Part shown: positions 20,730 through 63,896 of the stretch, piece after piece
Layout: every line of letters starts with the position of its first letter
Numbering within the stretch: the first letter of the stretch is position 1
NCBI GenBank assembly: GCA_963730915.1
Contig: CAVSTR010000004.1
Span: forward strand, 609,114-673,113
Source of the DNA: an uncultured Gemmatimonadales bacterium
GTDB lineage: Bacteria > Gemmatimonadota > Gemmatimonadetes > Gemmatimonadales > GWC2-71-9
Length of the DNA: 64,000 nucleotides
Direction: 5' to 3'
Program-made: the position numbers and the translations under genes
Notes under the pieces: model-generated
Databases searched by the model: none
The model's input: only the letters and a program-made list of their open reading frames with translations
What the model was told of the DNA's origin: nothing

Positions 20730-22202
20730 GTGAGCTCCGGCAGACCTTCGGCCAGGAATGTCGACCTGAGCATTGGTTGCGTTACGCTCTTCCTCCTGCC
20801 GTTCGCTGGAGTTGGGCTCTTCACCGCGGCGATGGCGGTGCAGCGGCTCGCCGCCCACAACTGGACTGAAGCGCTCTTCTTCGCGCTGTTCGCCCTGACA
20901 TTCGGTGGTGTCGGAATTGGCGGCATAATCGCAGCGCTGGCTGGTCGCCGGACGCTGAAAGCGCAGGAACTGCTTCAGGCGAGCCACCCCGATACACCCT
21001 GGCTGTGGCGGCAGGATTGGGCCTCCGGGCACATTACCGATTCCAGCCGCAGCACCATGATCGGCACATGGCTGTTCGCCACCCTGTGGAACCTGATCGG
21101 CTTTCCTACAGGGTTTCTTTCGGTTCGCGCTGCCCTGAGAGAAGGCAGACCGGCCGCGTTCCTCGGGCTGCTATTTCCCATCGTAGGCGTTGGGCTGGTG
21201 GTCTGGGCCATCAGAACAACTCTCCGTCACTGGACATACGGTGTCTCCCGCCTCGAGCTTGCCACCGTGCCTGGCGTGGTTGGCAGGAGCCTCATCGGCA
21301 CGGTCCGCGCGCCTTCCATGATTCAGGCGGAGCAGGGGTTCGACCTGAGTTTGACATGTGTTCGCCGGATGACCCATGGAGGCGGGAAGCAGAGATCCAC
21401 ATCCGAAAGCATCCTGTGGCAGGACGTGCAGCGGGTTCCAGGCCGACCGTTCCGGGCGCCCGCCCGAATGGAAACGCACATCCCGGTAGCCTTCCGCATC
21501 TCGGCAGACGCGCCCTCCTCCGACGCCAATAACCCGGCAAATCGGGTAGTCTGGCAGCTCCAGGTCTCGGCCGACGTGCCCGGGGTGAACTACGAGTCAC
21601 GTTTCGACGTCCCCGTCTTTCGAACCCCAGCCAGCGAACAGCCGCTTTCACCCGAGGAGACTCGGCTCACTCAGGTTGCCGATATCACTGTATATCAGCA
21701 GCCCGCCGATTCTCGCATTCTGGTGAGTGCGACACGCCGGGGCACCGAGATTCTGTTTCCCGCCGCTCGCAACCTGGGCGTGGCGGTGAGCCTGACGGTG
21801 TTTCTCCTGATATGGCTGGCAGGGGTGGGTCTTCAGATCTACTTCGGCGCGCCGCTGATTTTTCCGATCGTCACCGGACTCTTCGCGCTGCTTCTTGTGG
21901 TCGTGGTATTGGACTTATGGCTCCAGGTATCACGCATCAGAGTGACTGCGGGGTCGGTTTCGTGGGCCACGGGATACATCGTCCCCGGGCGCGAGCACAT
22001 GATCCCAGCCTCGGAGATCGCCGAAGTCAGCGCCACAACCGGCATGCAGGCAGGCAACAGGGTGTACTACGATGTCGTGATCGTTCGGAAATTCGGAAAG
22101 AAGATCAAGGTGGGTCACTCGGTTCGCGACAAGCGCGAGGCCGATTGGCTGGCAGGTACGATTAAGAAGGCGTTAGGCCAGGAGCCGGGAGTTAGGAGCT
22201 AG
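20730..22202 (+). CDS. polytopic membrane protein, unknown function
   Basis: 490 aa. About 4 N-terminal TM helices, a ~170-aa soluble middle, 2 more TM helices (LGVAVSLTVFLLIWLAGVGL, LIFPIVTGLFALLLVVVVLDLWL), and a ~90-aa C-terminal domain. The last codons and the TAG stop lie inside the heptamer repeat arm. Confidence 0.6.
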   Translation: MSSGRPSARNVDLSIGCVTLFLLPFAGVGLFTAAMAVQRLAAHNWTEALFFALFALTFGGVGIGGIIAALAGRRTLKAQELLQASHPDTPWLWRQDWASGHITDSSRSTMIGTWLFATLWNLIGFPTGFLSVRAALREGRPAAFLGLLFPIVGVGLVVWAIRTTLRHWTYGVSRLELATVPGVVGRSLIGTVRAPSMIQAEQGFDLSLTCVRRMTHGGGKQRSTSESILWQDVQRVPGRPFRAPARMETHIPVAFRISADAPSSDANNPANRVVWQLQVSADVPGVNYESRFDVPVFRTPASEQPLSPEETRLTQVADITVYQQPADSRILVSATRRGTEILFPAARNLGVAVSLTVFLLIWLAGVGLQIYFGAPLIFPIVTGLFALLLVVVVLDLWLQVSRIRVTAGSVSWATGYIVPGREHMIPASEIAEVSATTGMQAGNRVYYDVVIVRKFGKKIKVGHSVRDKREADWLAGTIKKALGQEPGVRS

Positions 22203-22267
22203 GAGCTGGCAACTATTCAGCGCGTGCGGCTTGCACCTCCCAGCTCCCAGCTCCTGGCTCCTGACTC
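22178..22267. repeat. inverted arrays of heptamer [AG]GGAGC[TC] forming a hairpin between convergent genes
   Basis: Left arm 22178-22209 (CCAGGAGCCGGGAGTTAGGAGCTAGGAGCTGG). Right arm 22236-22267 (CCTCCCAGCTCCCAGCTCCTGGCTCCTGACTC) is its imperfect reverse complement. 26-nt spacer. Confidence 0.85.
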
Positions 22268-28264: not shown

Positions 28265-28357
28265 TGTCATCCTGAGCGAAGCGAAGAGCCTGCCCTGAGC
28301 CTGCCGAAGGGAGCCAAGCTCCCTCGGTATGGTCCCTTCGCTGCTTTCAGGGTGGCA
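28265..28357. repeat. REP-like palindromic element (TGTCATCCTGAGCGAAGCGAAG box pair)
   Basis: IR-L TGTCATCCTGAGCGAAGCGAAGAGCC (28265-28290). IR-R GGTCCCTTCGCTGCTTTCAGGGTGGCA (28331-28357) is its imperfect reverse complement. An inner palindrome GGGAGCCAAGCTCCC is also present. Located between the NrfD-like gene and fdhE. Confidence 0.8.
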
Positions 28358-28365
28358 AATGTTGA

Positions 28366-30101: not shown

Positions 30102-30203
30102 TGGCGGGGCAGCGGGGCAGCGGGGCTGCTAGTCAGCAACGGGTCACGACGGGCAGCGCTGGCGTCGACTGTCCCGCCGCCCCGCTGCCCCGCTGCCCCG
30201 CTG
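30102..30203. repeat. inverted octamer arrays (CAGCGGGG)3 / (CCCCGCTG)3 filling the fdhA-fdhB intercistronic region
   Basis: Left arm 30102-30125 TGGCGGGGCAGCGGGGCAGCGGGG. Right arm 30180-30203 CCCCGCTGCCCCGCTGCCCCGCTG. 54-nt spacer. By eye the arms pair at 22 of 24 positions. Confidence 0.85.
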
Positions 30204-34631: not shown

Positions 34632-34689
34632 CTACCGCCGTGCCGCCCATACCGCCTTACCGCCTTACCGCCCTAGTGACGAACGTCAC
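34632..34689. repeat. octamer array (TTACCGCC-type, 5 units) followed by palindrome GTGACGAACGTCAC
   Basis: CTACCGCC GTGCCGCC CATACCGCC TTACCGCC TTACCGCC (34632-34672), then GTGACGAACGTCAC (34676-34689). Located in a divergent promoter region. The unit matches the right arm of the 49.97 kb element. Confidence 0.8.
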
Positions 34690-38840: not shown

Positions 38841-40559
38841 TCAGTCAGGAAGCGGCTCACCCACTTTCCACCCGGCGCGATCCAGCCGATCGAACAATCC
38901 GAGAACCTGCGGGCGGTCCTGGTGAACCGATAGCACCAGCAGATCGCCGGGGCGAGCCCAGGTGAGCGCTTCGCGCACGCCCTGCAGCTCGCTCGGAGCG
39001 CAGGTTATGGACGAAGCCGGTGTTCCCAGGCGGGTGAACTCATCCGCCAGTAGCGCCGGCAGCTCGCCCATGGTGCGGCCGCGGAGGTACTGATCCGTAT
39101 CCTTGACGATGATGTGGTCGGGTTGAAGGTTCGACGCTACTCTCGCCATCTCACGGATGGCATCGTCCGGGCGGTCTCCCGCCCCTCCCACCATGACCAG
39201 CCGCCGATCGGCGGGAATCCCCTTCGCCAGCCCCACGAGGGCGGACATGCCGTGGGCATTATGCGCGTAATCCACCAGGATCCGCGCCCCGCCTACCTCA
39301 TACATGTTTCCCCGGCCTAGGTTGTCCTCCGGTCTGCTTCCGAATGACCGCAGTGCTTCGGTGATCGCGGACGACGGAATGCCCAGCTCGGTTGCGACGG
39401 CCACCGCCGCCAGCGCGTTCGACACGTTGTGCCGCGCCGTTCCGCCGAACGTAAATGGCACATCCGTGATTCGGATCATGGGGGTACGGGATGCCCCGCG
39501 TATCAGAACGATGTGCTCACCATCCGCGATCACGGCGGCCCCGCCGCGGGCGACATGCGTTCTCACGAGGGCCGACGTCCCAGCCAGCGAAAACCAGATG
39601 ATCGGTGTCTTCACTCTGCTGCTGGCCCGGACCAGCTCGGCATCATCCGCATTCAAGACCAGCGGCCCACCCCCCGAAAGTGCGCGGGCCACCAGCAGCT
39701 TCGTCTCGGCCAGCTGCGCCAGGCTTTCGACGCCGAACTCGCCCAGGTGATCCTCCGCGATGTTCGTCACTGCCGCAACATTCGCCCGCGACGTGGCCAG
39801 GCCTCGCCGGAGAATTCCTCCCCGTGCCGTCTCCAGAACCGCGATCTCCACGGCAGGGTGACGCAAGGCAAGGCGGGCTCCGCCCGGTCCGGAGAAATCT
39901 CCTTCCCCGATCGTCTCACCATTCACCAGGACTCCCTCGGTCGAGGTCACGCCGGGGACTCTTCCTGCTGATCGGATCATGGCCGACAGGAGCCGCACGA
40001 CCGTCGTCTTGCCGTTGGAGCCGGTGATGAGCGCGATCGGCACGTCGTGGACCTTGCTCCACTCGATGGCGGTTGCCTCGGGTATGGAACGCACCGGCCA
40101 GACCAGGGCGCCGGTGCCGGACCCTACCGAAGCCAGATCTTCATCGCTCAGGAAGGTCAACCCGCGCGACTCGGCGGCTTCCTTGAGCGCCACCAGCCTC
40201 GGGTTTCCCTCTTCCTCGATGATTCCACGCAGGCGGAGGATGACCGGGGAGAGATCGGGTCGGCTCCTGTTCTCGAGCTCGGATGCTGCTACCTCCCACG
40301 CCTCCTCGACGAGCTCGGTGGCCGAGTACAGTCCGTCCACCGGCGCGCTGACCGCGAGACTCACCCCGCCGCGGAACGGTCGGCTCACGATGCGCTCACC
40401 CTTCCAGCCGACGGCATCCAGAAGGCTCCGTGCCGCCTTCTCCCACGCCGCGGCCGCCTGGGCAACAGGCTGGGCTTCCAGTGCTATCTCGAGCACCGCG
40501 CCGGGTCTGTCGAGCAAGAGGCCCGGTCCGGTGAGACGACGTGAGTCGAGAACGCGCAT
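38841..40559 (-). CDS. cyanophycin-synthetase-derived N-domain + Mur-ligase (M) domain protein lacking the ATP-grasp domain
   Basis: ORF 38841..40616. The likely start is ATG 40559 (MRVLDSRRLTGPG..., parallel to the CphA N-termini). Mur-ligase P-loop IALITGSNGKTT, VLETARGGILRRG, NIAEDHLG, ILVDYAHN. No ATP-grasp motifs between the N domain and the P-loop. Confidence 0.75.
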   Translation of the reverse strand: MRVLDSRRLTGPGLLLDRPGAVLEIALEAQPVAQAAAAWEKAARSLLDAVGWKGERIVSRPFRGGVSLAVSAPVDGLYSATELVEEAWEVAASELENRSRPDLSPVILRLRGIIEEEGNPRLVALKEAAESRGLTFLSDEDLASVGSGTGALVWPVRSIPEATAIEWSKVHDVPIALITGSNGKTTVVRLLSAMIRSAGRVPGVTSTEGVLVNGETIGEGDFSGPGGARLALRHPAVEIAVLETARGGILRRGLATSRANVAAVTNIAEDHLGEFGVESLAQLAETKLLVARALSGGGPLVLNADDAELVRASSRVKTPIIWFSLAGTSALVRTHVARGGAAVIADGEHIVLIRGASRTPMIRITDVPFTFGGTARHNVSNALAAVAVATELGIPSSAITEALRSFGSRPEDNLGRGNMYEVGGARILVDYAHNAHGMSALVGLAKGIPADRRLVMVGGAGDRPDDAIREMARVASNLQPDHIIVKDTDQYLRGRTMGELPALLADEFTRLGTPASSITCAPSELQGVREALTWARPGDLLVLSVHQDRPQVLGLFDRLDRAGWKVGEPLPD

Positions 40560-40715
40560 GGCCCAATAGTATCCTGGGAGAGGGAGAGAGCCAGTCAGGA
40601 AAGTGCGATGGGTCACTGACGCTATTATCCGGTACCGCCACCCTCATAGGCACGGAACCGCTCGGATGACGCGGCACGAGGATACGCACTCTCATTGTTA
40701 GATAGATCACCCGCC

Positions 40716-43376
40716 ATGTCTCAACCCGCGATCACCGCGGAATTGCCTTCGCTCGATCCCACCGAGCTGGAGATCACCCGGATCCGTGCCCTTCGGGGCC
40801 CCAACTATTGGCGCCTTGCGCCGGTGGTTGCGTGTGATGTTCGGCTCGGTGGACTCGAGTCGCTCAGCACCGCCGATGTGCCGGGTTTTACCGAGCGCCT
40901 GCTCCATGCCATTCCGAGTCTTCGTGAGCACCCCTGCTCGCGGGGGCATCCGGGAGGATTCGTCGAACGCCTCACCGAAGGCACCGGCTGGCCTCATGTC
41001 CTGGAGCATGTAGCTCTCGAGCTTCAGAGCCTCGCCGGCACGGACGTCGATTTCGGCCGCGCCACCGAATCCGGTTCCCCCGGGCTGTGGTGGGTCATCG
41101 TGGAATACGATGAGGAGGAGCTCGGCGTCGCCAGTATTCGGCAGGGCACTACGCTGATGCGCGCCTGCCTGACCGGCGAGAGCATAGACGCCGCCGCCTT
41201 GATTCAGAGCCTTCGTGACCTGTGGCACGACGTACGACTCGGTCCGTCAACGGGAGTGATCGTAGAGGAAGCTCGTCGCCGTGGCATTCCGGTGCGCCGG
41301 CTCGGCACCGGCTCGATGGTCCAATTGGGACTCGGCCGCCACCTTCGCCGGATTCAGGCGACCACAACGGATACCACCAGTGTGATCGCCGCCGACATCG
41401 CGCAGAACAAGGATCTCACCAAGCGCATGCTCGAAGGCATCGGCCTCGCCGTTCCGGGTGGCGCTGTCGCTCGCGACGTCGAGCGGGCCGTGGAGATCGC
41501 CGGGGAAATCGGCTTTCCTGTCATTCTGAAGCCGCTGGCCGGCAATCAGGGCAGGGGGATCTCACCGCGACTCGACGACGAGCAGGCCGTTCGTGATGCC
41601 TGGACCCGCACCGCCGACGCATTTCCGGACATGGTGGTCGAACGGCATAGCGTAGGACGGGATCACCGGGTCCTGATCGTGAATGGCAAAGTGGTGGCGG
41701 TAGCCGAGCGGATTCCGGCTCATGTGATCGGGGATGGGCGGAACACCATTCACGAGCTCATTGCGGAAGCGAATGCCGATCCGCGCCGAGGCCGGGGGCA
41801 CGCGCGCATACTCACCGAAATTCCGGCCGATGATGCCACGAGCGAGTATCTGGCGCAGTCGGGGTTGACGCTCGACAGCGTGCCCGATGCAGGAGAGCGC
41901 GTGCTGCTCCGTTCCACCGCCAACCTCTCCACCGGCGGCACCTCCATCGATCGTACCGACGAGATCCATCCCGACAACGTGACTGCGTGCGAGATGGCGG
42001 CCGGGGTCATCGGCCTGGACATCGCCGGCCTCGACGTGCTCACCCCCGACATCTCACGGCCGTTCCATGAGAACGGAGCGGTGATCATCGAGGTGAATTC
42101 CGGGCCCGGCATCCGGATGCACACCCATCCGGCAGAAGGAAAGCCCCGGAACGTCGGCGGGGCCATTCTCGACATGCTGTATCCGCCCGGCGCGCGCGCA
42201 ACCATTCCGATCATCGCGGTCACCGGCACCAACGGCAAGACAACCACCACCCGGCTCGTCGCCCACTTGTTTCGGGCGACCGGTCTCACCGTCGGGTTCA
42301 CCACGACGGACGGCGTGTATCTCCAGAACCGCATGGTGGTGCAGGGAGACATGACCGGTCCCTTCGCGGCCAACGTCGTATTGTCCAATCCGACCGTGGA
42401 TCTCGCTGTACTCGAAACGGCTCGTGGCGGGCTGCTTCGGTCCGGGCTCGGCTTCATGGAGTGCGACGTCGGCATCGTCCTCAATGTCGCGGCCGATCAT
42501 CTCGGCATCGGCGGCATCGACACCATCGAGCAGCTTGCAAACGTGAAGAGCGTCATTCCTCAGGTGGTGAAGCGTCGCGGCCACGCGGTGCTCAACGCCG
42601 ATGATCCCCTGGTGTACGGAATGGCCGAGCGCACCCGGGGTGACGTCGTTCTGTTTTCGGCGCAGCCCGGGCGGTCGAACCCGCTGGTGGAGCAGCATGT
42701 CGAGGACGGCGGGACCGCGGCTACTATCGAAGAGGATGAGACCTTCGTGGTTCGGCGGGGTCGACTGTGTATCCCGATCGCTTCTGCTCGCGATGTGCCG
42801 CTCACGCTCGGCGGGGCGGCCCGCTTTCAGTATGGAAACATCCTGGCCGCCGTGGCCGCGGCCTACGTGCAGGGCATGCGCTACGAGGACATCCGCTCCG
42901 GCCTTCTCTCCTTCTTCCCTTCGCCGTCACTCACACCGGGTCGCCTGAATCTCCTTCGGGTGGGCAGGGGCCGGGTGCTGGTGGACTACGCCCACAATCC
43001 TGCCGCTGTCGAAGGCCTCATGGATATGGTCCGTCGCATGCCCGCGCGCCGGCGGATCGGTGTGGTCACCGCGCCGGGAGACCGCCGGGACGAGGACCTC
43101 CGGGCCGTGGGCCGCCGCTGCGCCGGGCTCGATCATGTGATCCTGAAAGAAGATGAGAACCGCAGGGGCAGGTCTCCCGGAGAGATCGCGCAGGTCATCC
43201 GTGAAGGGCTGCTGGAGTCGGGAATCTCAGCCGATCAGGTGACCACCGTCTACAGCGAGATGGATGCGGTCGAGCATGCGGTGAGGGAATTAGGCGATCA
43301 GGACCTGGTAGTGATTCTGGTCGACGATGTTCCCGCGGTGCTGGAGCAGCTCCGGCTGCATCGGGCGACGCCATAG
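40716..43376 (+). CDS. cphA: cyanophycin synthetase (full-length N-G-M)
   Basis: ORF 40695..43376 (TTG). ATG 40716 is preferred. ATP-grasp region (ILKPLAGNQGRGIS, ANLSTGGTSID, EVNSGPGIRMH). M domain (AVTGTNGKTTTTRL, VLVDYAHNPAA). Confidence 0.9.
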   Translation: MSQPAITAELPSLDPTELEITRIRALRGPNYWRLAPVVACDVRLGGLESLSTADVPGFTERLLHAIPSLREHPCSRGHPGGFVERLTEGTGWPHVLEHVALELQSLAGTDVDFGRATESGSPGLWWVIVEYDEEELGVASIRQGTTLMRACLTGESIDAAALIQSLRDLWHDVRLGPSTGVIVEEARRRGIPVRRLGTGSMVQLGLGRHLRRIQATTTDTTSVIAADIAQNKDLTKRMLEGIGLAVPGGAVARDVERAVEIAGEIGFPVILKPLAGNQGRGISPRLDDEQAVRDAWTRTADAFPDMVVERHSVGRDHRVLIVNGKVVAVAERIPAHVIGDGRNTIHELIAEANADPRRGRGHARILTEIPADDATSEYLAQSGLTLDSVPDAGERVLLRSTANLSTGGTSIDRTDEIHPDNVTACEMAAGVIGLDIAGLDVLTPDISRPFHENGAVIIEVNSGPGIRMHTHPAEGKPRNVGGAILDMLYPPGARATIPIIAVTGTNGKTTTTRLVAHLFRATGLTVGFTTTDGVYLQNRMVVQGDMTGPFAANVVLSNPTVDLAVLETARGGLLRSGLGFMECDVGIVLNVAADHLGIGGIDTIEQLANVKSVIPQVVKRRGHAVLNADDPLVYGMAERTRGDVVLFSAQPGRSNPLVEQHVEDGGTAATIEEDETFVVRRGRLCIPIASARDVPLTLGGAARFQYGNILAAVAAAYVQGMRYEDIRSGLLSFFPSPSLTPGRLNLLRVGRGRVLVDYAHNPAAVEGLMDMVRRMPARRRIGVVTAPGDRRDEDLRAVGRRCAGLDHVILKEDENRRGRSPGEIAQVIREGLLESGISADQVTTVYSEMDAVEHAVRELGDQDLVVILVDDVPAVLEQLRLHRATP

Positions 43377-43387
43377 CTGCCGGCGCT

Positions 43388-46180
43388 CTAGTCGTCCGTC
43401 TCCCCCCGAGCGATTCGGACGCCGCGAGTATCCCGCACGAACTCCCGTCGCTTGTCGTCCATCATCGTCGCAACTCCCGCCATCGATATCTCAGGCTCGG
43501 ATATTCTGGTACGCTCGGATGGCAGCGCGGCTGCGTCGGGCCGGAACTGAATGACCTGCTTCCAGCTCCGGGTTATGGCGTCCGCGAAAATGAGGACGAG
43601 GTCACCCGGCCGGCCTTCTCTGAGCGCGGCATCCACCGCCAGCGCCTCTTCTGGAATGATCGAGATACGCTCCGCTTCCACTCCATTCTCCAGCAGCGCC
43701 TTCTGCAGCAGCTTCGGCACCTCGTCCCCGCCCCGGCCCCGGAGCTGATCGTCTCGCCGGCAGATGAAGTAGTCGAAGTGTCCCGCCGCAATCCTTCCCA
43801 GCTCCGCGATATCCTCGTCCCGCCGGTCGCCTGGTGCCGACAATACGCAGACTCGCCGGCCGGTTATCTCCAGCCGGTCTACCAGCACGCACATCGCTTC
43901 GATCGCGGCCGGATTGTGCGCGTAGTCGAGGATGACCTGGAACGGATGCTCGTCGTAGATGTTCATCCGGCCCGGCGCCTGAAAGAACGTCGTATCGAAG
44001 GTCCGGAGCCCGTGCCGGATGTCTTCCAGCTTGAGCCCCATGCTGAACGCCATTGCCGCGGCGAACATCGCGTTCTGAACGTTGTGGAGCGCGCGGCCTT
44101 CCAGCGTAGCGGGTATGAGGTGGGTCCAGAGGAGGGGAATGTGGGCGCCGTGATCGTAGATGGTGATCATGTGCCCCTTGATTCCACTCTCCAGCACCAC
44201 GCCGCGTCCGCCCGCCTTGATGTGCTCGCCCACCAGCTCGTGAGTCGGGTCCATCGTGACATAGCAGAGATGGGTGGCTTCGGTATAGTCGGCCATCTTG
44301 AGACAGAGCGGATCGTCGGCGTTGAGAATCGCGGTATCCCGGGCGACCTCGATCACAATGCGCTTGACTTCGGCCAGCTGGTCCAGCGTCCCGATGCCGC
44401 GGAGGCCGAGGTGATCGGACTTGACGTTGAGCACCGCGCCAACATCGCAGTGGCGCACGCCCATGCCGGCGCGGAGTAGTCCGCCCCGGGCAATCTCGAG
44501 CACCGCCACATCCACCGACGGATCGCTGAGCACCATCCGGGTGGCGACCGGCCCCGTCATGTCGCCAGCCACCGTGCGCTGACCGTTGATGTACACGCCG
44601 TCGGTCGAGGTGAGGCCCACGTGGCGCCCTGCAAGCTTCTGAATGTGCGCCAGCATCCTGGCGGTGGTCGTCTTCCCGTTCGTTCCCGTCACCGCCGCGA
44701 TCGGTATCCGGCTCGGCGAGCCCGGTGGAAACAGCATGTCCATCACCGGCCCACCCACATCGCGCGGCCGGCCCTCGCTCGGGGCCATGTGCATGCGGAA
44801 TCCGGGCGCGGCATTCACCTCGCAGATGGCGCCTCCGACCTCCTTGTACGACTCGGTGACGTCGGTCGTCAGGAAGTCCACGCCGCCCACATCGAGGCCG
44901 ATCGCCTTCACCGCACGCACCGCCATCTCGATATTGTCGGGATGCACGTGATCCGTCATGTCGGTCGCGGTTCCGCCGGTCGAGAGATTGCCGGTGGACC
45001 GAAGGAAGACGCGCTCACCATCATCCGGAACGGTATCCCTGGTATATCCCTTCTTCGCCAGCATGGTCTCGGCCTGGTGATCGAACAGCAGGCGGGTCAG
45101 CACCTTCTCGTGCCCGACACCTCGGCGCGGATCCTGGTTCACCATGTCGACCAGCTGCTCGATCGTATGAATGCCGTCGCCCATCACGTGCCCCGGAAGC
45201 CGCAGTGCCACCGCCACCAGCTCGCCGTTGATCACCAGCATTCGGTGGTCCTCGCCGGTGATGAAGCTCTCGACGATGACGCTGCGGCTGTGCTCCCGCG
45301 CCACCTCGAAGGCCTCCGCCACCTGCTCCCCGCCCGTGAGATGGATCGAGATGCCCCGTCCATGGTTCGCGTTGTATGGCTTCACCACCACCGGATAGCC
45401 GATCCGCTCAGCCGCGGCGACGGCGTCCTGCGCCGTCTGAACCAGGCGCTGCTGCGGTACCGGCAGACCCAGGTTGCCCAGGATCCGGTTGGTCTCCTCC
45501 TTGTCGGAGGCAAGCTCGACGGCAATGTGGGAGGTCCGGCTGGTGACGGTGGCCTGGATCCGCTGCTGGTAGCGGCCATGGCCAAACTGGATCAGGCTCT
45601 GATCGTTGAGACGTATCCAGGGAATTCGCCGCTCCTCCGCGGCGCGCACCAGGGCCATGGTGCTCGGGCCAATCGCTCGGCGCTGCGCGAACCGGATGAA
45701 CTCGTCGCGCTCGGCGGCAAAGTCGAATCCCTGCGGAACCGAGCCCTCCGGCCGGAGCTCGGGCGGCAGCAACGAGTGAAGCAGGACCAGCGCCAGCCGG
45801 CCCGCCTCGACTCCCACCTCTTCCTGTTCGTATTGATAGACCACGTAGTAGTGGCCCCGCGGTCCGTGAGAGCGGGTCTTGCCGAAGGTGACCTTCTCTC
45901 CCGCCACGTTCTGAAGCTCGAGCGCCATGTGCTCCAGGATGTGGCCCATCCACGTCCCATCGCCTTCCGTGAGGCGGCGGATGAATCCACCCGGCTTGCC
46001 ATAGGAGCAGCCGTGATCCTTCAGGCCGGGCAGGGCCGCGATCAGGGGGTCGGTGAACCTCGGCCCCAGCTTCCCCGACGGCCAGTCTTCCAGTGGCCCG
46101 AGGTCGATGTGGAGCCGGATGACGGGAAAGTGAGCGTAGAGGCTGGGTCCGACGAATACGGCCTTGTCGAGTATGAGCAT
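43388..46180 (-). CDS. cphA: cyanophycin synthetase paralog (full-length N-G-M)
   Basis: 930 aa. VVKPYNANHGRGIS, GNLSTGGTATD, EVNAAPGFRMH, AVTGTNGKTTTARM, VILDYAHNPAA. Convergent with the other cphA, with an 11-bp gap between stops. Confidence 0.9.
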   Translation of the reverse strand: MLILDKAVFVGPSLYAHFPVIRLHIDLGPLEDWPSGKLGPRFTDPLIAALPGLKDHGCSYGKPGGFIRRLTEGDGTWMGHILEHMALELQNVAGEKVTFGKTRSHGPRGHYYVVYQYEQEEVGVEAGRLALVLLHSLLPPELRPEGSVPQGFDFAAERDEFIRFAQRRAIGPSTMALVRAAEERRIPWIRLNDQSLIQFGHGRYQQRIQATVTSRTSHIAVELASDKEETNRILGNLGLPVPQQRLVQTAQDAVAAAERIGYPVVVKPYNANHGRGISIHLTGGEQVAEAFEVAREHSRSVIVESFITGEDHRMLVINGELVAVALRLPGHVMGDGIHTIEQLVDMVNQDPRRGVGHEKVLTRLLFDHQAETMLAKKGYTRDTVPDDGERVFLRSTGNLSTGGTATDMTDHVHPDNIEMAVRAVKAIGLDVGGVDFLTTDVTESYKEVGGAICEVNAAPGFRMHMAPSEGRPRDVGGPVMDMLFPPGSPSRIPIAAVTGTNGKTTTARMLAHIQKLAGRHVGLTSTDGVYINGQRTVAGDMTGPVATRMVLSDPSVDVAVLEIARGGLLRAGMGVRHCDVGAVLNVKSDHLGLRGIGTLDQLAEVKRIVIEVARDTAILNADDPLCLKMADYTEATHLCYVTMDPTHELVGEHIKAGGRGVVLESGIKGHMITIYDHGAHIPLLWTHLIPATLEGRALHNVQNAMFAAAMAFSMGLKLEDIRHGLRTFDTTFFQAPGRMNIYDEHPFQVILDYAHNPAAIEAMCVLVDRLEITGRRVCVLSAPGDRRDEDIAELGRIAAGHFDYFICRRDDQLRGRGGDEVPKLLQKALLENGVEAERISIIPEEALAVDAALREGRPGDLVLIFADAITRSWKQVIQFRPDAAALPSERTRISEPEISMAGVATMMDDKRREFVRDTRGVRIARGETDD

Positions 46181-46226
46181 TGATGGTTCTTCCGAGGATC
46201 AGATTACCGAGCATTGTCATCCTGCA

Positions 46227-46338
46227 GCGCCGCTGCCCCGCTGCCCCGCTGCCCCGCTGCCCCGCTGCCCCGCTGCCCCGCTGCCCCGCTTACCCGCTGC
46301 CCCGCTGCCCCGCTGCCCCGCTTACCTGCTCGCCCGCT
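46227..46338. repeat. tandem octamer array (GCCCCGCT, about 14 units, 10 perfect) between cphB and the cphA paralog
   Basis: Perfect units start at 46235, 46243, 46251, 46259, 46267, 46275, 46283, 46299, 46307 and 46315. Variants are GCGCCGCT, TACCCGCT, TACCTGCT and CGCCCGCT. Preceded by a TGTCATCCTG box at 46215. The minus-strand transcript would carry (AGCGGGGC)n. Confidence 0.9.
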
Positions 46339-47185
46339 TCGCCGTCTTGTCCCCTGTTTCGGTGCCTGCCCGAATGGCCAAAGCGGGCGCCGCCGCGGCT
46401 ACCCGGGTGTGGAGATTGAAGGTTGAGCCGTGATCCAGGATGTGCAACTTCAGCCCGATCAGACATATGGCGTCGTTCTTCCGCACCCGCGCCATGGACG
46501 AGAACTCGATGCCCGACGGGTCGACGATCGTGAGCGCTCCACTGCCGACCACTTCGAGAGTCTCATCGGGTGCAATGAACGCCGCCGTGTTCTCGTCCAG
46601 TCCGATCCCGATGGCGAACGGGTTGTAGGCCAGTGCCGTGAGCAGCCGGCCGAGGCGGTCGCGCTGGCGGAAGTGCTGGTCGATGATGACCCGGTTCGTG
46701 AGCCCCAGCCCCGGTGCCAGCGTGACGATCCTTGCTCGCGGGGACGCGCCTTCCTTTCCGAAGGCGATCATGTGCTCGCACAGGAACGCCGCTCCGGCCG
46801 ATGTCCCCGCGATGTGCATCCCCTCGACGTTTCGCTGACGCATCGCCTTGGCCACCGCCGTCCCACCGATCATGGTGCTCAGCCGAAGCTGGTTGCCGCC
46901 GGTGAGAAACACGCCGTCCACCTTGTGCAGGACCTCGAGCCACTCGGGCCGTTCGCAGTCGGCGCGGCTGGCGATGGGCAGGGCCTTCGCGTCGCCGACA
47001 CCGAGGCTCTTGAACAGCTCCTCATAGCGCCCGCCGGTATCGGTGAGCATGGACGCGGTCGGGATGATGGCGATGCGGCCTTTCGCACCCCCACAGAGCG
47101 TGGCGAAGCGTCGCAGAATGTGGATGTCTCCGATTTTCTCCTCGGCGCCGCCCACGGGGATGATGTAGCCTCTGGATTTCGCCAC
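46322..47185 (-). CDS. cphB: cyanophycinase (S51 peptidase)
   Basis: 287 aa. YIIPVGGAEEK, nucleophile context IAGTSAGAAFL, VIIDQHFRQRDRLGRL. The last codons overlap the octamer array. Confidence 0.9.
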   Translation of the reverse strand: MAKSRGYIIPVGGAEEKIGDIHILRRFATLCGGAKGRIAIIPTASMLTDTGGRYEELFKSLGVGDAKALPIASRADCERPEWLEVLHKVDGVFLTGGNQLRLSTMIGGTAVAKAMRQRNVEGMHIAGTSAGAAFLCEHMIAFGKEGASPRARIVTLAPGLGLTNRVIIDQHFRQRDRLGRLLTALAYNPFAIGIGLDENTAAFIAPDETLEVVGSGALTIVDPSGIEFSSMARVRKNDAICLIGLKLHILDHGSTFNLHTRVAAAAPALAIRAGTETGDKTAKRASR

Positions 47186-48407: not shown

Positions 48408-48500
48408 GTCTGGCGTCTAGTCGTCTGGCGTCTGGCGTCTAGCGTCTGGCGTCTCGGCGTCTGGCGTCTGGCGTCTGGCGTCTGGCGTCTGGCGTCTGGC
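48408..48500. repeat. tandem heptamer array (GTCTGGC, 13 units) in the iadA / egtB-like divergent region
   Basis: 10 perfect GTCTGGC units plus variants GTCTAGTC, GTCTAGC and GTCTCGGC. The last six are perfect and contiguous (48459-48500). A TGTCACCCCGAGC box follows at 48559-48571. Confidence 0.9.
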
Positions 48501-48590: not shown

Positions 48591-49804
48591 TTGAGCACAC
48601 ATCCCGACCAAGGCCGCATGCCCACCCTGCAATCGAGCACTCTCTCGCGTAAACGGCTGGCCGAATTGCTGGCCGAGGCACGAGCGCGCACCGTTCTCCT
48701 GGTGAGCCCCGTGTCCGAAGTGGGCTTGCACGCTCGGCCCGACGAGGCTGTTGGGTCGGTGTTGCAGGAGCTGGGGCAGATCCTCCGATTCGAGCTCGAG
48801 TGGCTGGCACAGGAGCCCGAGGGCGGCGGCGCCGAGTCGCTGCCGAGCTTCGAGTCGTACGACGAGTGGTTCGACGCCATGCTGGAGATTCGGGAGCGAT
48901 CCCTGGAGCAGCTCGAGTCGCTCCACGACCTGAGCTCCTCTCCGAGTATGGAAGATCGCTGCCGGCTGGTTCTGGACCACGAGTACCGTCGCGACGAGGC
49001 CATTCTCGAGACGCTGCAGCTCCAGCCGGATTATCGCGCGCCTCGGCGTGTCCTCCTGCCTCGCGGCCGCCGTCTCGCCGATCCCGGCATCATGGCGCGC
49101 TTTCCCGGCGGAACCGATCTCGATCGGAGCGAGCTGCCGAGTCACGGGTGTGGCCGGACGAGGCGCCGGTCGACAAGGTCCACCTGGAGCCGTTCTGGAT
49201 CGATGTCATGCCGGTGACGAACGGCGACTTCGTCACCTTCATGGCCGCCGGCGGATACGTGAGCGCCGACTACTGGTCCGATGAAGGATGGGAGTGGGTC
49301 CGCAGCAATGGGGTGCAGACCCCGCGGCACTGGTTCTGGGATGAAGGAGCGTGGTGGACCCGCTGGATGGACAGACCCATGCTGCTCGACCTCACCTGCC
49401 CGGTGAGCTGCGTGTCGCGCTACGAGGCCGAAGCCTTCGCCAGGTTCGTGGGGAAGAGACTGCCGACCGAGCTCGAGTGGGAAGCGGCCGCGACATGGGA
49501 TCCCGAGAGTCAGGACCGGCGGCACTATCCCTGGGGCAGCATGGCGCCATCGCTCAACGTCGCCAATCTCGATCAGCTCGCGTTCGAGACCGCCGAGGTC
49601 GGTGCCTTTCCCGGCAACCTCTCGCCGGTCGGCTGTTATGGAATGATCGGTGATCTCTGGGAATGGACCGCGAGCCCGACGGGTGTCCTCCGTGGCGGCT
49701 CCTGGGCGACCCGTCCCGGCGCCGCGCGAGTCACGGCCACGAAGTGCGCGTCACCATCTGCTCGCCACGTCTTCAGTGGGTTTCGTTGTGCGCATGATGG
49801 GTGA
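48591..49804 (+). pseudogene. degenerate EgtB/FGE-sulfatase paralog (frameshifted, Fe ligands lost, internal deletion)
   Basis: The N-terminal DinB-like part is in ORF 48591..49217 and the FGE-like part in ORF 48800..49804. The frames switch near 49117-49130. LGQILRFEL and HEYRRDE replace LGHIAHFEE and HEYQHNE of egtB. About 26 aa (DFHGYPGFQSFPYPEYSEAFFGSDYK) are missing between WEWT and LRGGSW. Confidence 0.7.
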
Positions 49805-49991
49805 AGGCGGTAGGGCGGTATGGCGGTAGGTAGTGCGGCTGGGAATGGTTGAGTGATTGTCATCCCGAACGTAGTGAGGGATCGCTCCATCTGACGTCCG
49901 CACGACCATGGCCGCTCAGACGCCTCGTTAAGCGATCCCTCGCTTTGCTCGGGATGACATCCTTTTCCTAGCTTACCGCCTTCCCGCCTAC
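49804..49991. repeat. composite palindromic element: octamer arms + inverted TGTCATCCCGA REP boxes, spanning a whole convergent intergenic region
   Basis: Left arm 49804-49838 (AAGGCGGT AGGGCGGT ATGGCGGT AGG...). IR-L 49858-49886 TGTCATCCCGAACGTAGTGAGGGATCGCT. IR-R 49931-49959 AGCGATCCCTCGCTTTGCTCGGGATGACA. Right arm 49972-49991 (CTTACCGCC TTCCCGCC TAC). The arms touch the stop codons of both flanking genes. Confidence 0.85.
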
Positions 49992-52512: not shown

Positions 52513-52561
52513 GGGACTGCAACACCTTGCAAGACAAAGGCCCAGGCGGGTTCTTTCTGCT

Positions 52562-52598
52562 CTCCGCCCGTCCGCCTCTCCGCCTGTCCGCCTGTCCG
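52562..52598. repeat. octamer array ([CG]TCCGCC[CT], about 4.5 units) upstream of leuS
   Basis: CTCCGCCC GTCCGCCT CTCCGCCT GTCCGCCT GTCCG, in the MCP/leuS divergent region. Confidence 0.8.
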
Positions 52599-53444
52599 TA
52601 GCAGTAACACCGCAGTGCCAATAGATTTACGCTTCCTTGAAACCACGAATATCTCCGGAACGACCCCGGCCGCCGGCGGGACGAACCAGCACCATGAAGA
52701 CGACCGAGACGCGAGTGAAGCAGAATCCCATATCTACCGACGTGGTGCCCTACCGCCCGGAGACCATCGAGCCCAAGTGGCAGGCGCGATGGGCCGAGCG
52801 GCACACCAACGAGCCCGACCTCGATCGCGCGGTCCAGCCCTTCTACAACCTCATGATGTTCCCCTACCCCTCGGCCGAGGGGCTGCACGTGGGGAACATG
52901 TTCGCCTTCACCGGCAGCGACGTGTATGGCCGGTTCAAGCGGCTCCAGGGCTATCGACGTGTTCGAGCCGATCGGCTACGACGCGTTCGGCATCCACAGT
53001 GAGAACTACGCCATCAAGGTGGGCATCAATCCCGCCGAGCTGATTCCGCGGAACATCACCAACTTCCGGCGCCAGCTCAAAAGCATCGGCGGCATGTTCG
53101 ACTGGCGTCACGAGCTCTCGACCACGGATCCGAAGTATTACAAGTGGACCCAGTGGATCTTTCTGCAGCTGCTGAAGGCGGGCAAGGCGTACAAGAAGGC
53201 GGCCGCGGTCAACTGGTGTCCCAAGGACCAGACCGTGCTGGCGAACGAGCAGGTCATCGACGGCCGCTGCGAGCGCTGCGGCACCACCGTCGAGCAGCGG
53301 ACGCTGGAGCAGTGGTTCTTCCGCATCACTGAGTATGCCGACCGCCTGTTGGCGAATCTGGACGACAAGTCGAAGATGGACTGGTCCGAGAGCACCACCC
53401 TGGCGCAGCGGAATTGGTTGGGGCGTTCGAGGCGCGGAGTATTT

Positions 53445-53567
53445 GGAGGGTCGGAGGGTCGGAGGGACGGAGGGACGGAGGATGTCACCCTCGGCGTAGC
53501 GAAGAGGCAGCGGGGCAGCGTAGGAGAAGATGTCACCCTGACCCCTCGCGAAGCGAGGGGGAGGGGC
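53445..53567. repeat. octamer array GGAGGG[TA]C (4.5 units) plus two TGTCACCC REP-like boxes, inside leuS
   Basis: Array 53445-53482. Boxes start at 53483 (TGTCACCCTCGGCGTAGCGAAGAGGC) and 53531 (TGTCACCCTGACCCCTCGCGAAGCGAGGGG). AGCGGGGCAGCG lies between them. It translates as GGSEGRRDGGCHPRRSEEAAGQRRRRCHPDPSRSEGEG. Confidence 0.85.
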
Positions 53568-53950
53568 CGAAACCCCGCGCGCCAGAGATCAAAGTCTTTA
53601 CGACGAGGCCCGACACCGTCTTCGGCGCCACCTTCATGGTCCTCGCTCCCGAGCACCCGCTGGTCGACTCGTTCACCACTCCGAAGCAGAAGGCGGAAGT
53701 GAACGCGTATCGCCAGGCGGCGACGTCGAAGGACCTGGTCTCCCGCAAGGTGGGCGACCGGGAGAAGACCGGCGTCTTCACCGGCGGCCACGCGATCAAT
53801 CCGGCCACCGGCAAGCCGATCCCGGTCTGGATCGCCGACTACGTGCTGATGGAGTACGGCACCGGTGCCATCATGGCGGTGCCCGGCCACGACCAGCGCG
53901 ACTTCGAGTTCGCTCAGAACGCTTCGAGTCTGCCGATTCTCAGAGTAGTC

Positions 53951-53995
53951 TGTCACCCTGAGCGGAGCGAAGGAGCCGAAGCTCCGCTTGAAGCC
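53951..53995. repeat. REP-like box inside leuS (TGTCACCCTGAGCGGAGCGAAGGAGCCGAAGCTCCGC)
   Basis: Hairpin GCGGAGC / GCTCCGC. Translated in frame as VCHPERSEGAEAPL, in the variable linker after HDQRDFEFA. Confidence 0.75.
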
Positions 53996-54807
53996 GCATA
54001 CGTAGACAACGACGACGGAGTCCTCTGCAACTCCGGCCAGTTCGACGGCCTGAAAGTCCCCGAAGCCAAGCGCGCCATCACCGCCTGGCTCGCCGAGCGC
54101 GGGGCGGGGAAGGCCGTGGTCAACTACCGCCTGCACGACTGGTGCATCAGCCGCCAGCGGTACTGGGGCCCGCCGATCCCCATCATCTACTGCGACGAGC
54201 ACGGCGCCGTCCCGGTACCCGAGAAGGATCTCCCGGTCGAGCTGCCGGTGATCGACGACTTCCAGCCGGACGACAGCGGCATCTCGCCGCTGGCCCGGCA
54301 CGAGAGCTGGTACCACGTCCCATGTCCCGTCTGCGGCAAGCGCAGCCGGCGCGAGACCGACGTCAGCGACACCTTCCTCGACTCGGCCTGGTACTACCTG
54401 CGCTATCCCAGCACCGACTTCGACGACCGTCCCTTCGATCAGGGGCGGACCCGGCGGTGGCTGCCGGTCACCACCTACATCGGCGGCAACGAGCACGCGG
54501 TGCTGCACCTGCTCTATTCGCGCTTCATCGCGATGGTGCTGCAGGAGCTCGGCATGGTCCACTTCGACGAGCCGTTCCGGAAGTTCCGGGCGCACGGGCA
54601 CATCGTGAAGGATGGGTCCAAGATGTCGAAGAGCCACGGCAACGTGGTCGTGCCCGACGAGTACATCGCGCGCTGGGGCGCCGACACCTTCCGGATGTAT
54701 CTCATGTTCCTGGGCCCGTTCCAGGAGGGCGGCGACTTCCGTGACGAGGGCATCGCCGGCCCGCGCCGGTTCCTGGAGAAGGTCTGGAATCTCGTGAGCG
54801 ACGCCCA

Positions 54808-54935
54808 GCAGTCATTGCGAGAGCCTGCCCCGAGCAATCAAACGAGGGGCCGCGAAGCGACCGAAGCAATTCCGCGGGCTGGCACGGAGCCGCAGTCATT
54901 GCGAGCCCCCGACGCGGGCGCGGCAATCCCCCGGC
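54808..54935. repeat. pair of GCAGTCATTGCGAG...GCAATC REP-like boxes inside leuS
   Basis: GCAGTCATTGCGAG at 54808 and 54892, each followed by ...GCAATC. In frame they add about 30 aa (QQSLREPAPSNQTRGREATEAIPRAGTEPQSLRAPDAGAAIP) relative to Thermus-type LeuRS. Confidence 0.75.
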
Positions 54936-55421
54936 AGCCGCAGGTCGACCTCTCGCACGCCGTCCAGACCAAGCGCCATCAGACGGTGAAGAAGGTGACA
55001 GAAGGTCTCGAAGACCTGCGCTACAACACCTCCATCGCGGCGCTGATGGAACTGGTGAACACCCTTCGGGCGGAGAACAGCTGGAATCAGCAGCTGATCG
55101 AGGAGCTGATCGTCATGCTCGCTCCCTTCGCCCCCCACTTCGCCGAGGAGAACTGGGAGCGGCTGGGGCACGACGGCTCGATCTTCGATGCGCGCTGGCC
55201 GGGCTGGGACGAGCGGCTGACGGTGGAGGACTCGGTCGAGATCGCGGTGCAGGTGAACGGGAAGACCCGGTCGAAGGTGTCGGTGCCGCGCGATGCAGAG
55301 CAGGGTGCTGTGGTGGCAGCCGCGCAGGAGGATGCGGCGGTGCGCCGGTTTACCGAGGGCAAGGAGGTTGGGAAAGTGGTGTACGTGCCGAATCGGCTGC
55401 TGAATTTGGTGGTCGGCTAGG

Positions 55422-58243: not shown

Positions 58244-59121
58244 ATGCGGATCGCCACCTGGAACGTCAACTCCCTCAAGGCCCGCCTGGAGAAGGTCTCC
58301 TGGTGGCTCGATCGCGCCGGCCCGACGTGCTGCTGATGCAGGAGACCAAGCTGGCGGATGCAGCCGCGCCCGGTCGCCGAGTTCCGCGCTGCCGGCTACG
58401 AGCTGGCTCATCACGGCGAAGGGCAGTGGAACGGAGTCGCGATCGCGAGCCGCGTCGGGATCGCCGACGTCGTGACCAACTTCGGCGAGCCGCTCCGTCC
58501 GGCCCGCACACCCGATGTCGCGGACGACGAGCCGCTGGCCGAGGCGCGGATGATGGCCGCCGACCTGCGGCGGCGTGCGCGTCGTGTCGCTCTACGCTCC
58601 CAACGGCAGGGCCGTCGGCTCGATCTTCTACGAGGCCAAGCTGGCCTGGTACGACCGTCTCGCACGCTGGCTCGAGCAATCGGCCGATCCCGCGGAGCCG
58701 CTCGTGCTCGGCGGCGACTTCAATCTCGCTCCCGAAGACACGGACGTGTGGGACCCCGCGGCCTGCCATGGCGGAACCCACGTGTCACCCCGGGAGCGGG
58801 ACGCCTTCTTCCGGCTGTGTCGCTGGGGTCTGGTGGACGCCTATCGTCTCCGTCGCGCCGAGACCGGATCGCTACACCTGGTACGATTACCGCGCGGGGA
58901 TGTTCCACAAGAACTTCGGCATGCGCATCGATCACCTGCTGGTCACTCGGCCCCTGGCGGAGCGCACCGTGTGGGCCGAGATCGATCGCGAGGCGCGGAA
59001 AGGAAAGCCGATTCCGTCCGACCACGCGCCGCTCGTGATCGATATCGACCAGCCGGGCCACCCCTTCGATGCCGGGTGGCAGGCCGCCCTGGGGAGGATC
59101 GCCGCCCGGGTCCACAGCTAG
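58244..59121 (+). pseudogene. xthA: exodeoxyribonuclease III, four frame disruptions as sequenced
   Basis: MRIATWNVNSLKARLEKVSWWLDRAG (frame of 58244), PDVLLMQETKLADAA, PVAEFRAAGYELAHHGEGQWNGVAI, CGGVRVVSLYAPNG...LVLGGDFNLAPED, PDRYTWYDYRAG...SDHAPLVIDI. Frames change near 58321-58324, 58369-58371, 58564-58565 and 58861-58866. Confidence 0.85.
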
Positions 59122-63585: not shown

Positions 63586-63813
63586 GAGCTGGGAGCTGGG
63601 AGCTAGGAGCTAGGAGCAACGTTGTCATCCTGAGCCCTTCGACTTGCTCAGGGTAAACTCCGCGAAGGTCTCTCCGAGAGGTAGATCCGGGCTCGGACTT
63701 GGACGAGAGGTACCGGTGGGTTCTGCGGAGGCACTGCGATCCCAATCACAGAACCAGATTCCCGCGTTTCGAGCTCCCAGCTCCCAGCTCCCGGCTCCTA
63801 GCTCCCAGCTCCC
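63586..63813. repeat. composite palindromic element: heptamer GGAGCT[GA] arms flanking a TGTCATCCTGAGC-containing core
   Basis: Left arm 63586-63617 (GAGCTGG GAGCTGG GAGCTAG GAGCTAG GAGC). Box TGTCATCCTGAGC at 63623. Right arm 63771-63813 (GAGCTCC CAGCTCC CAGCTCC CGGCTCC TAGCTCC CAGCTCC C) is the reverse complement of the same heptamer family used at 22.2 kb. Confidence 0.85.
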
Positions 63814-63896
63814 ACGCGGGTGATCCATACCACGGTCCTTCCTACTGGTGCGCACAACCATTCGAGTGCACCGGCGCTTACACACCAGGAGGATCT

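Follow-up and report, generated by a model that had tools for sequence, protein, structure and literature searches.

How do short hairpin-forming repeats come to lie in frame within an essential gene? The question is raised by leuS, the gene for leucyl-tRNA synthetase (LeuRS; leucine--tRNA ligase), in a stretch of 64,000 nucleotides from an uncultured soil bacterium of the Gemmatimonadales (contig CAVSTR010000004.1, positions 609,114 to 673,113 of the forward strand; hereafter the window). The initial annotation of this DNA, made from its letters alone, had proposed that elements which resemble REPs (repetitive extragenic palindromes) are inserted at three sites of the gene. We find it probable that leuS was colonised at three insertion-tolerant loops by a widespread superfamily of small hairpin repeats, together with the 7-8-nt tandem arrays that accompany them. 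The evidence comes from the gene itself, from its orthologs and from copies of the same repeats lying outside genes.

Repeats within leuS

Two families of short boxes, A and B, and two tandem arrays were located in the gene. The locus of the closest relative, referred to below as L081, was used for comparison.

52694..55420, + strand: leuS, encoding a leucine--tRNA ligase of the Gemmatimonadales type; as given, its frames run 2, 0, 2
53445..53481, + strand: tandem array of octamers, (GGAGGGWC) x4.6, forming the first part of insert 1; Tandem Repeats Finder (TRF) unit GGAGGGAC, score 60
53483..53506, + strand: A-box 1, degenerate (TGTCACCCTCGGCGTAGCGAAGAG); regular-expression match to the A-box family, no stable fold
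53505..53519, + strand: short second array GGCAGCGG x~2; read directly, unit shared with the arrays between genes at 30104 and 46230
53531..53572, + strand: A-box 2, whose apical hairpin is extended (CCCCTCGC-GAA-GCGAGGGG); from alignment to L081 and folding
53951..53988, + strand: site-2 A-box (TGTCACCCTGAGCGGAGCGAAGGAGC), translated as CHPERSEGA; GCTCCGCT, downstream, pairs with its core
54808..54873, + strand: B-box 1, GCAGTCATTGCGAG…GAGCAATC, then a second 3' half (GGGGCCGCGAAGCGACCGAAGCAATTCC); partly decayed, no stable fold
54892..54935, + strand: B-box 2, GCAGTCATTGCGAG-CCCCCGACGCGGG-CGCGGCAATCC; orthologous to L081 12097-12131

The octamer array and the two TGTCACCC boxes that had been assigned to the first segment are indeed present (53445-53572), and insert 1 is built as an array followed by a box, twice in tandem: (GGAGGGWC) x4.6 plus a box, then (GGCAGCGG) x2 plus a box. 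The peptide first quoted for it (…CHPRRSEE…CHPDPSRSEGEG…) is a frame-2 reading and probably wrong, the closest ortholog reading the shared box as DVTLTPREARGRGPK, which corresponds to frame 0 of the window. As DNA, A-box 2 folds at -14 kcal/mol (z = -2.3). The hairpin box announced after HDQRDFEFA exists at 53951-53976, but it is not a large insertion: site 2 of the window adds only 2-4 aa, exceeding its Thermus counterpart by 2 aa and the shortest orthologs by 3-4 aa. The core of this box, AGCGGAGC, is complementary to GCTCCGCT, which encodes the native conserved APL residues, and the two form an 8-bp hairpin at 53960-53988 (-9.3 kcal/mol, z = -1.9); this pairing may be a coincidence or a trace of the origin of the box. 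Before HQTVKKVT, where QSLR boxes had been described, two to three GTCATTGCGAG…GCAATC boxes lie at 54808-54935. The counterpart of B-box 2 in the closest relative (L081 12097-12131) keeps its inner stem CCCGC-GAA-GCGGG intact.

These boxes match sequences outside the gene. TGTCACCC, found in leuS at 53483, 53531 and 53951, occurs nine times in the window against 2.0±1.4 expected, a count reached by none of the shuffled sequences, and the 23-mer TGTCACCCTGAGCGGAGCGAAGG at 53951 agrees with the intergenic copy at 28265 at 20 of 23 positions (chance expectation 0). For GTCATTGCGAG, present at 54811 and 54895, the count of two in the window does not differ significantly from the 1.5 expected; the window alone is insufficient here, and the repeat is convincing because relatives hold copies of it.

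Three variable sites in LeuRS orthologs

The ortholog set comprised about 120 LeuRS proteins of 823-908 aa with at least 70% identity, those with a name all being Gemmatimonadales. Nearly all of the length variation in their alignment falls at three sites:

Site 1, NWLGRSEGAE…VFTTRPDT: 15-70 aa in orthologs (median 27), 55 aa in the window
Site 2, HDQRDFEFA…NSG: 34-76 aa in orthologs, 38 aa in the window
Site 3, FLEKVW…HQTVKKVT: 21-50 aa in orthologs (22 aa in 89 of 120), 62 aa in the window

The ortholog alignment that had been suggested as a check bears out the core of the proposal: the sites are variable in the 120 LeuRS, and the boxes share nucleotide similarity with intergenic copies. Peptides recurring at these sites are QSLRG…AEAIPQQAHG, DVTLSAAKGPKP or VTPSEARG, HPERSEG, and SSRAERE or LSPRAQRGGG, as well as periodic peptides of seven (TPDSRLP) or eight (GEAGKRGS) residues. 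Regular expressions for the repeat peptides had all of their 151 matches within these sites, which total 11,925 residues; the remaining 90,405 residues gave none. One DNA motif, read in its three forward frames, yields VTLSAAKG, SSRAERE and HPERSEG; peptides from the reverse strand of the boxes were absent from the 120 orthologs. In these proteins the inserts are always in frame and stop-free. The peptide CHPERSEGA of site 2 is also found in the orthologs P0002, P0005, P0008, P0012, P0046 and P0047.

Syntenic loci from six related genomes (L081-L086) were obtained via their LeuRS. The leuS gene of L081 is 88.5% identical to that of the window at the nucleotide level. At site 1 it carries A-box 2 alone; the window has in addition the octamer array, A-box 1 and the short second array. 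A-box 2 is identical in both over about 45 nt apart from one missing C (CC in the window, CCC in L081). Site 2 holds an A-box in both genomes, with different compensating stems (CACCCT…AGG and ATCTC…GAGAT, respectively) and in different frames, the box of L081 being read as SSRAEREIA. B-boxes are present at site 3 of both, with an extra, partly decayed unit in the window. In other relatives the same sites contain in-frame arrays: CCGTCCGC x4.4 (L084) and GCGGGGAA x3.4 (L086) at site 1, and the heptamers CCCGACT x8.1 and CGACTCG x9.4 (L084) and AGCTCTC x4.1 (L085) at site 3.

LeuRS of more distant Gemmatimonadota have canonical short loops. A leuS gene from a metagenome-assembled genome of the Dehalococcoidia (L068, 549-3347) carries an unrelated repeat of about 160 nt in frame at sites 1 and 2; its two copies (1281-1440 and 1857-2016) share 83% identity, and its hairpin core, of 54 nt, appears again outside leuS at 174, 4820, 8374 and 11462. 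Five B-box-like copies were also seen downstream of leuS in this contig.

On alignment with the Thermus thermophilus LeuRS structure 1H3N, site 1 corresponds to residues 229-242, the turn of a beta-hairpin leading into the CP1 editing domain, site 2 to a loop at about residues 357-362, late in the editing domain, and site 3 to residues 711-723, before the first helices of the anticodon-binding domain. We take all three to be exposed linkers in that structure. An AlphaFold2 model of the open reading frame (ORF) 53429-55417, built with 44 close homologs, had a mean predicted local distance difference test score of 59.9 and a predicted template-modelling score of 0.39, the inserts appearing as low-confidence coil; since much of the catalytic core was also of low confidence, the model is no evidence for surface exposure. 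The LeuRS of this clade lack about 58 residues of the Thermus enzyme (577-636), the position falling at about 54600-54640 of the window (LeuRS residues 637-642). The missing residues are presumably, in rough terms, the leucine-specific domain.

Architecture and abundance of the A- and B-boxes

The A-box consensus is TGTCAYCCYGAGCGNAGCGARGGR, also written (T)GTCAYCCYGAGCGNAGCGARGGR, and that of the B-box is GTCATTGCGAG-[variable hairpin, stem-GNA-stem]-GAAGCAATC. The two are organised alike: the GTCAY tag is followed by the outer stem and GA, then by an apical mini-hairpin of the GCGNAGC type, a further GA and the return strand of the outer stem. The stem of the A-box was examined with a search pattern that permitted all four combinations at both variable pairs, using the 94 metagenomic boxes among the matches listed. 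The first pair was T-A in 83 boxes, C-G in nine and T-G in two; the second was T-A in 65, C-G in 28 and T-G in one, and C-A occurred at neither. Pooled, 185 of the 188 pairs are Watson-Crick and three are G-T, so the stem is maintained. The loop position N takes any base (A 41, C 33, T 15, G 5), and in 25 of the 94 boxes an inverted partner lies 14-58 nt away. The apical parts of B-boxes are either CGNAGC (the 6-nt class) or longer, highly diverse, self-complementary stems, which likewise covary.

The 26-nt degenerate A-box pattern gave at least 94 matches in metagenome contigs and 101 stretches in IMG/VR, and the B-box pattern was likewise very common in IMG/VR. Both families are thus very common in environmental DNA, on a scale of thousands. 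Given how often both occur in IMG/VR contigs, phages or prophages are possible carriers or vectors. One contig classed as viral (L221, IMG/VR contig 3300010328_000003, 16 kb) contains six B-boxes and one A-box. Reading of A-boxes in frame was also seen in other genes: a complete doublet is read through in a TPR/FG-GAP/ASPIC gene of a soil metagenome contig (L144, 7441-10992; …CHPERSEGP…LKASAQDD…), and a 933-aa protein with no Pfam match from another such contig (L128, 1687-4485, - strand) contains the doublet in frame twice (GVIPNPAP…QQIPRSARDDS). When a database of 5.8 billion proteins was searched for other hosts with an insert peptide of the QSLRG…EAIP kind, no candidate had three 5-residue words in common with it.

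The covariance models of Rfam gave no match at gathering scores across the whole window, the sole match in the 46-56 kb region being a chance microRNA (E = 0.85), and a full-text literature search for the box sequences returned unrelated primers only. The GTCAY-tag / GCGNAGC hairpin superfamily is apparently undescribed, being absent from Rfam and from the literature searched.

Intergenic copies and tandem arrays

Boxes, arrays and composites of the two were found between genes of the window, among them inverted doublets resembling REPINs (REP doublets forming hairpins).

28265..28361, + strand: A-box inverted doublet, REPIN-like, intergenic; fold -23.2 kcal/mol, z = -3.7, 0/200 shuffles
46215..46339, + strand: intergenic composite, truncated TGTCATCCT box then CCGCTGCC x11.6 (TRF, regular expression)
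49806..49959, + strand: intergenic composite between convergent genes, array GGCGGTAG x3.1 then an inverted A-box doublet (TRF, regular expression, fold)
52560..52598, + strand: array of octamers, TCCGCCTG x4.5, upstream of leuS in the spacer (TRF)

The doublet at 49858-49959 forms one long DNA hairpin of -28.8 kcal/mol (z = -5.1), and none of 200 shuffles was as stable. Altogether the window holds about six intergenic boxes and five to six in leuS. Intergenic boxes are also present in the syntenic relatives (L081:5704, L082:212, L084:8497, L085:6280 and L083:12691), those at L081:5704 and L083:12691 being B-boxes. The B-box at L083 12689-12719 begins on the final base of the leuS stop codon (cTAGTCATTGCGAG…), which recalls REPs that abut or supply stops. 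Miniature inverted-repeat transposable elements measure 70-300 bp and have terminal inverted repeats and a target-site duplication; the intergenic doublets here are about 100 nt long with inverted TG…CA ends, and the leuS copies are single boxes. Inspection of the doublet flanks revealed no target-site duplication. A tblastn search for the REP-associated tyrosine transposase (RAYT), with a single E. coli query, found none in the window or the compared loci, which is a weak negative; between box pairs in the loci L119 and L136 no transposase was recognised by eye, the ORFs there being unannotated and resembling ordinary metabolic genes.

Arrays of 7-8-nt units occupy most spacers of the window (46230-46339, 48408-48500, 52560-52598, 30104-30203, 63586-63814, 22177-22267, 34633-34672 and 49806-49830). 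Some start in pairs (30104/30169, 63586/63772, 22180/22237), and several are inverted pairs. The unit is specific to the locus, with orthologous spacers of relatives holding other units, as in the spacer upstream of leuS in L081, L083, L084 and L086, and many units are G-rich on one strand. Arrays often lie directly 5' of a TGTCAY box; such composites of array and box are found between genes at 46215, 48408/48559, 49806/49858 and 63586/63623, and insert 1 is built in this way too. Two relatives have a small PF05635 (23S_rRNA_IVP-like) gene (L086 7994-8476, L083 8008-8520) between their M48 peptidase and MCP genes; it is flanked by inverted octamer arrays (GGCGGTAC… / …CGTACCGC), and the equivalent spacer of the window, L081, L084 and L085 lacks it. 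It resembles an inserted cassette with arrays at its borders.

Origin of the inserts

We propose that the elements would spread as non-autonomous DNA in the manner of REPs and REPINs, probably via hairpins of single-stranded DNA on which an enzyme provided in trans acts, together with slippage and recombination. The leuS insertions that survive would be those that keep the frame, contain no stop and encode hydrophilic loops rich in Gly, Ser, Arg, Glu and Pro, and these would then be translated as a passive surface decoration of the enzyme.

Several points weigh against this proposal. The mobility of the elements is something that we infer and have not observed, and their translation in leuS we infer only from frame conservation in gene calls. 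All leuS boxes lie on the coding strand, a bias that neutral insertion followed by filtering does not obviously predict, and every genic box in the six syntenic genomes is within leuS, which could point to a role specific to this gene. No transposase was identified by the RAYT search of the window and loci with its E. coli query, target-site duplications were not seen at the doublet flanks, and structure prediction was too poor for confirming that the inserts are exposed. Finally, the window sequence as given does not encode an intact LeuRS.

The orientation bias and the apparent restriction to leuS also allow another, unlikely, interpretation: that the loops at the entry and exit of the LeuRS editing domain and the loop preceding the anticodon-binding domain are recurrent in-frame landing pads for unrelated repeats in at least two phyla (Gemmatimonadota and Chloroflexota), strand-specific insertion of single-stranded DNA or a selected role accounting for the two biases. 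The candidate roles would be a hypervariable enzyme surface or a nucleic-acid structure within an essential gene; simple tolerance is the alternative. The material at these pads includes the 7-8-nt arrays, in which gain or loss of a unit changes the frame.

A rather improbable explanation is that the elements are kept for a function, either as DNA or RNA structure (regulation, mRNA stability or a G-rich array) or as a hypervariable LeuRS surface under diversifying selection. Besides the strict orientation bias, with no reverse-strand box peptide in 120 orthologs, and the confinement of genic boxes to leuS in the six genomes, it could draw on the conservation of A-box 2, 100% over about 45 nt against a background of 88.5%, and on the unrelated repeat at the same LeuRS sites in another phylum. 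However, many orthologs do without inserts at one or more sites, as at site 3, which is minimal in 89 of 120; several window copies have decayed and no longer fold; insert content differs between close relatives; and elsewhere the same families act like ordinary REPs near gene 3' ends.

Reading frame of leuS and sequence errors

The inserts had initially been described as stop-free in the LeuRS frame. For the window this does not hold: the frame changes within insert 1, and a second frameshift lies upstream, at 52955, so that the window contains no uninterrupted leuS ORF. The gene uses frame 2 up to 52954 (…FKRLQGY), frame 0 from 52956 (DVFEPIGYDAFG…NWLGRS) and frame 2 again from within insert 1 to the stop. 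With the closest ortholog as query, tblastn returned it in three pieces (52694-52954, 52956-53567 and 53543-55417). Two aberrant features precede the octamer array of insert 1:

52955, + strand: extra base in leuS, window GGC TAT C GAC, L081 GGG TAC GAC (DNA alignment, frame stop maps)
53430..53444, + strand: garbled SEGAE[IL]xF motif, read as SRRGVF; orthologs all NWLGRSEGAE (alignment to L081)

The extra base, which shifts the frame from 2 to 0, is not within any repeat. At the garbled motif it looks from the alignment as though several bases were lost in G runs. The change of frame inside insert 1 is at 53566-67, where the window has CC and L081 CCC and is thus one base short. From NWLGRS to VFTTRPDT the window counts 164 nt, which is not divisible by 3. 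Deletion of one 8-nt array unit from insert 1 is an alternative way to restore the frame, and the array copy number is therefore uncertain.

When the frames are joined, the product has 908 aa. The top database match, P0001, shares 85% identity with it, and it matches T. thermophilus LeuRS 1H3N with E = 5e-223. It contains HVGN, KMSKS and TTRPDT, in keeping with a bacterial-type LeuRS, whose class I core has HIGH-like and KMSKS motifs and whose editing domain has TTRPDT, and the 120 orthologs carry PF00133, PF09334, PF13603 and PF08264. Outside the inserts the gene is under purifying selection: the ratio of non-synonymous to synonymous substitution rates (dN/dS) against L081 is 0.12 over 834 codons, and the 660 C-terminal codons are without stops. 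Two neighbours of leuS are also frameshifted relative to their counterparts in relatives. The FGE-sulfatase gene at 48618-49801 has two single-base indels (net +2 at about 49100-49131), and the Exo_endo_phos gene at 58244-59109 has four (near 58318, 58369, 58560 and 58864); the genes at 38.8-48.4 kb are intact. This suggests that consensus quality is locally poor. Since both neighbours have similar single-base indels and the dN/dS of leuS is 0.12, the frame breaks are most likely assembly errors, from a noisy and probably long-read consensus, and not the marks of a pseudogene. A programmed frameshift at the octamer array was considered less parsimonious than sequencing error because neighbouring genes carry indels.

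It is accordingly quite improbable that this copy of leuS is a decaying pseudogene in which repeats accumulated after the loss of selection. At least two net frameshifts and a garbled invariant SEGAE within 52955-53567 are what such decay might leave; but, apart from the low dN/dS, the stop-free C-terminal part and the indels of the two unrelated neighbours, one of the frameshifts is a lost C in a 45-nt stretch otherwise identical to L081, and the same repeats stand at the same sites in 120 intact orthologs.

We regard as very improbable the view that local slippage gave rise to the segments, as native low-complexity linkers that evolve fast and are unrelated to mobile or repeated DNA. The 7-8-nt arrays and the duplicated QSLR units do resemble slippage products, and site 2 is nearly length-neutral; yet the boxes match intergenic copies in the window and in relatives, belong to metagenome families on a scale of thousands with covarying stems, and the frame in which one and the same box is read differs between orthologs. 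That reads containing repeats were misjoined into the gene, an assembly artefact, is extremely improbable in spite of the clear consensus errors of the window and the difficulty of assembling tandem arrays, as independent assemblies (two JGI samples, L081 and L082, and many other projects) carry the elements at the same sites in full-length gene calls and the flanks are collinear with orthologs. An intein, an intron and translational bypass were also dropped: the units are of 25-130 nt with no intein or intron features, and the inserts of orthologs are always in frame and stop-free, a restriction that bypassing would not impose.

Comparison with known systems

The closest parallel is with intragenic REPs. 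A minority of the GTAG- and CGTC-tagged REP superfamilies lie inside ORFs, where they are read through and encode 20-80 aa; their hosts include tRNA synthetase genes, and different REPs can occupy approximately the same gene site in related species (Di Nocera, De Gregorio, Rocco 2013, PMC3733652). Like them, the boxes described here are tagged palindromes of short length that also lie between genes, frequently as inverted dimers. They differ in the tag, which is TGTCAY or GTCAT, (T)GTCAY in general form and not GTAG or CGTC, in the apical GCGNAGC mini-hairpin bracketed by GA, in their occurrence in Gemmatimonadales at three recurrent sites of one gene that turn over across more than 100 orthologs, and in that no RAYT was found by tblastn of the window and loci with the E. 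coli query. The leuS inserts work like intragenic REPs or REPINs, in a new family and lineage, and the phenomenon is already known. The novelty that had been claimed on the grounds of a different lineage and element family holds for both of these, and is modest for the phenomenon itself, since in-frame intragenic REPs, including those of tRNA synthetase genes, are already published (PMC3733652).

In a REPIN a short palindrome is doubled in inverted orientation (Bertels and Rainey 2011, PMC3116915). The doublets at 28265-28361 and 49858-49959, each forming one long hairpin, resemble them, with singlets as remnants; the single-copy RAYT gene flanked by repeats that defines the REPIN/RAYT system was not found here by the same tblastn search of the window and loci.

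A likeness to Rickettsia palindromic elements (RPEs) had been noted at the outset, and it stands in that the boxes of orthologs are read through in frame. RPEs are palindromes found in frame in unrelated genes, including essential ones, at positions compatible with the fold (Ogata et al. 2000, reviewed in PMC10969869). The likeness is in the in-frame behaviour only: RPEs are about 100-150 bp long and occur in many genes of one reduced genome, whereas here units of 25-45 nt, plus arrays, are concentrated in one gene in the DNA examined. From their description, we take the RPE families (RPE-1 to RPE-10) to be unrelated in sequence to our boxes.

Arrays of hepta- and octanucleotides between and inside genes have been reported in Geobacter metallireducens (Aklujkar et al. 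2009, PMC2700814). They are similar in having about four copies of 7-8-nt units, sometimes as pairs on opposite strands, and differ in units and lineage; here the unit varies by locus and the arrays adjoin TGTCAY boxes. Both box families have GCGNAGC, N being free, as their apical core, and d(GCGNAGC) is an extraordinarily stable DNA mini-hairpin (PMC13037366), although in the literature it is a biophysical motif and not a genomic repeat family. By analogy, this stability may be relevant to the boxes in single-stranded DNA.

Neighbouring genes

The window also contains a cyanophycin gene cluster (38844-46180) with two cyanophycin synthetase paralogs, at 40797-43388 (+ strand) and 43391-46180 (- strand), and a Mur-ligase-like gene; a cyanophycinase-like S51 peptidase lies downstream. 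All close relatives show synteny for this cluster.

Significance

Documented across more than 100 orthologs, leuS of the Gemmatimonadales offers a case of selfish hairpin repeats written into an essential enzyme without destroying it. The combination of intragenic repeats with a noisy long-read consensus leads to false 'pseudogenes' of essential genes. LeuRS tolerates 10-50 additional residues at three positions, information of use in protein engineering and in interpreting alignments of aminoacyl-tRNA synthetases. Beyond this gene, the analysis exposes a very widespread GTCAY-tag / GCGNAGC repeat superfamily linked to locus-specific arrays of 7-8-nt units.

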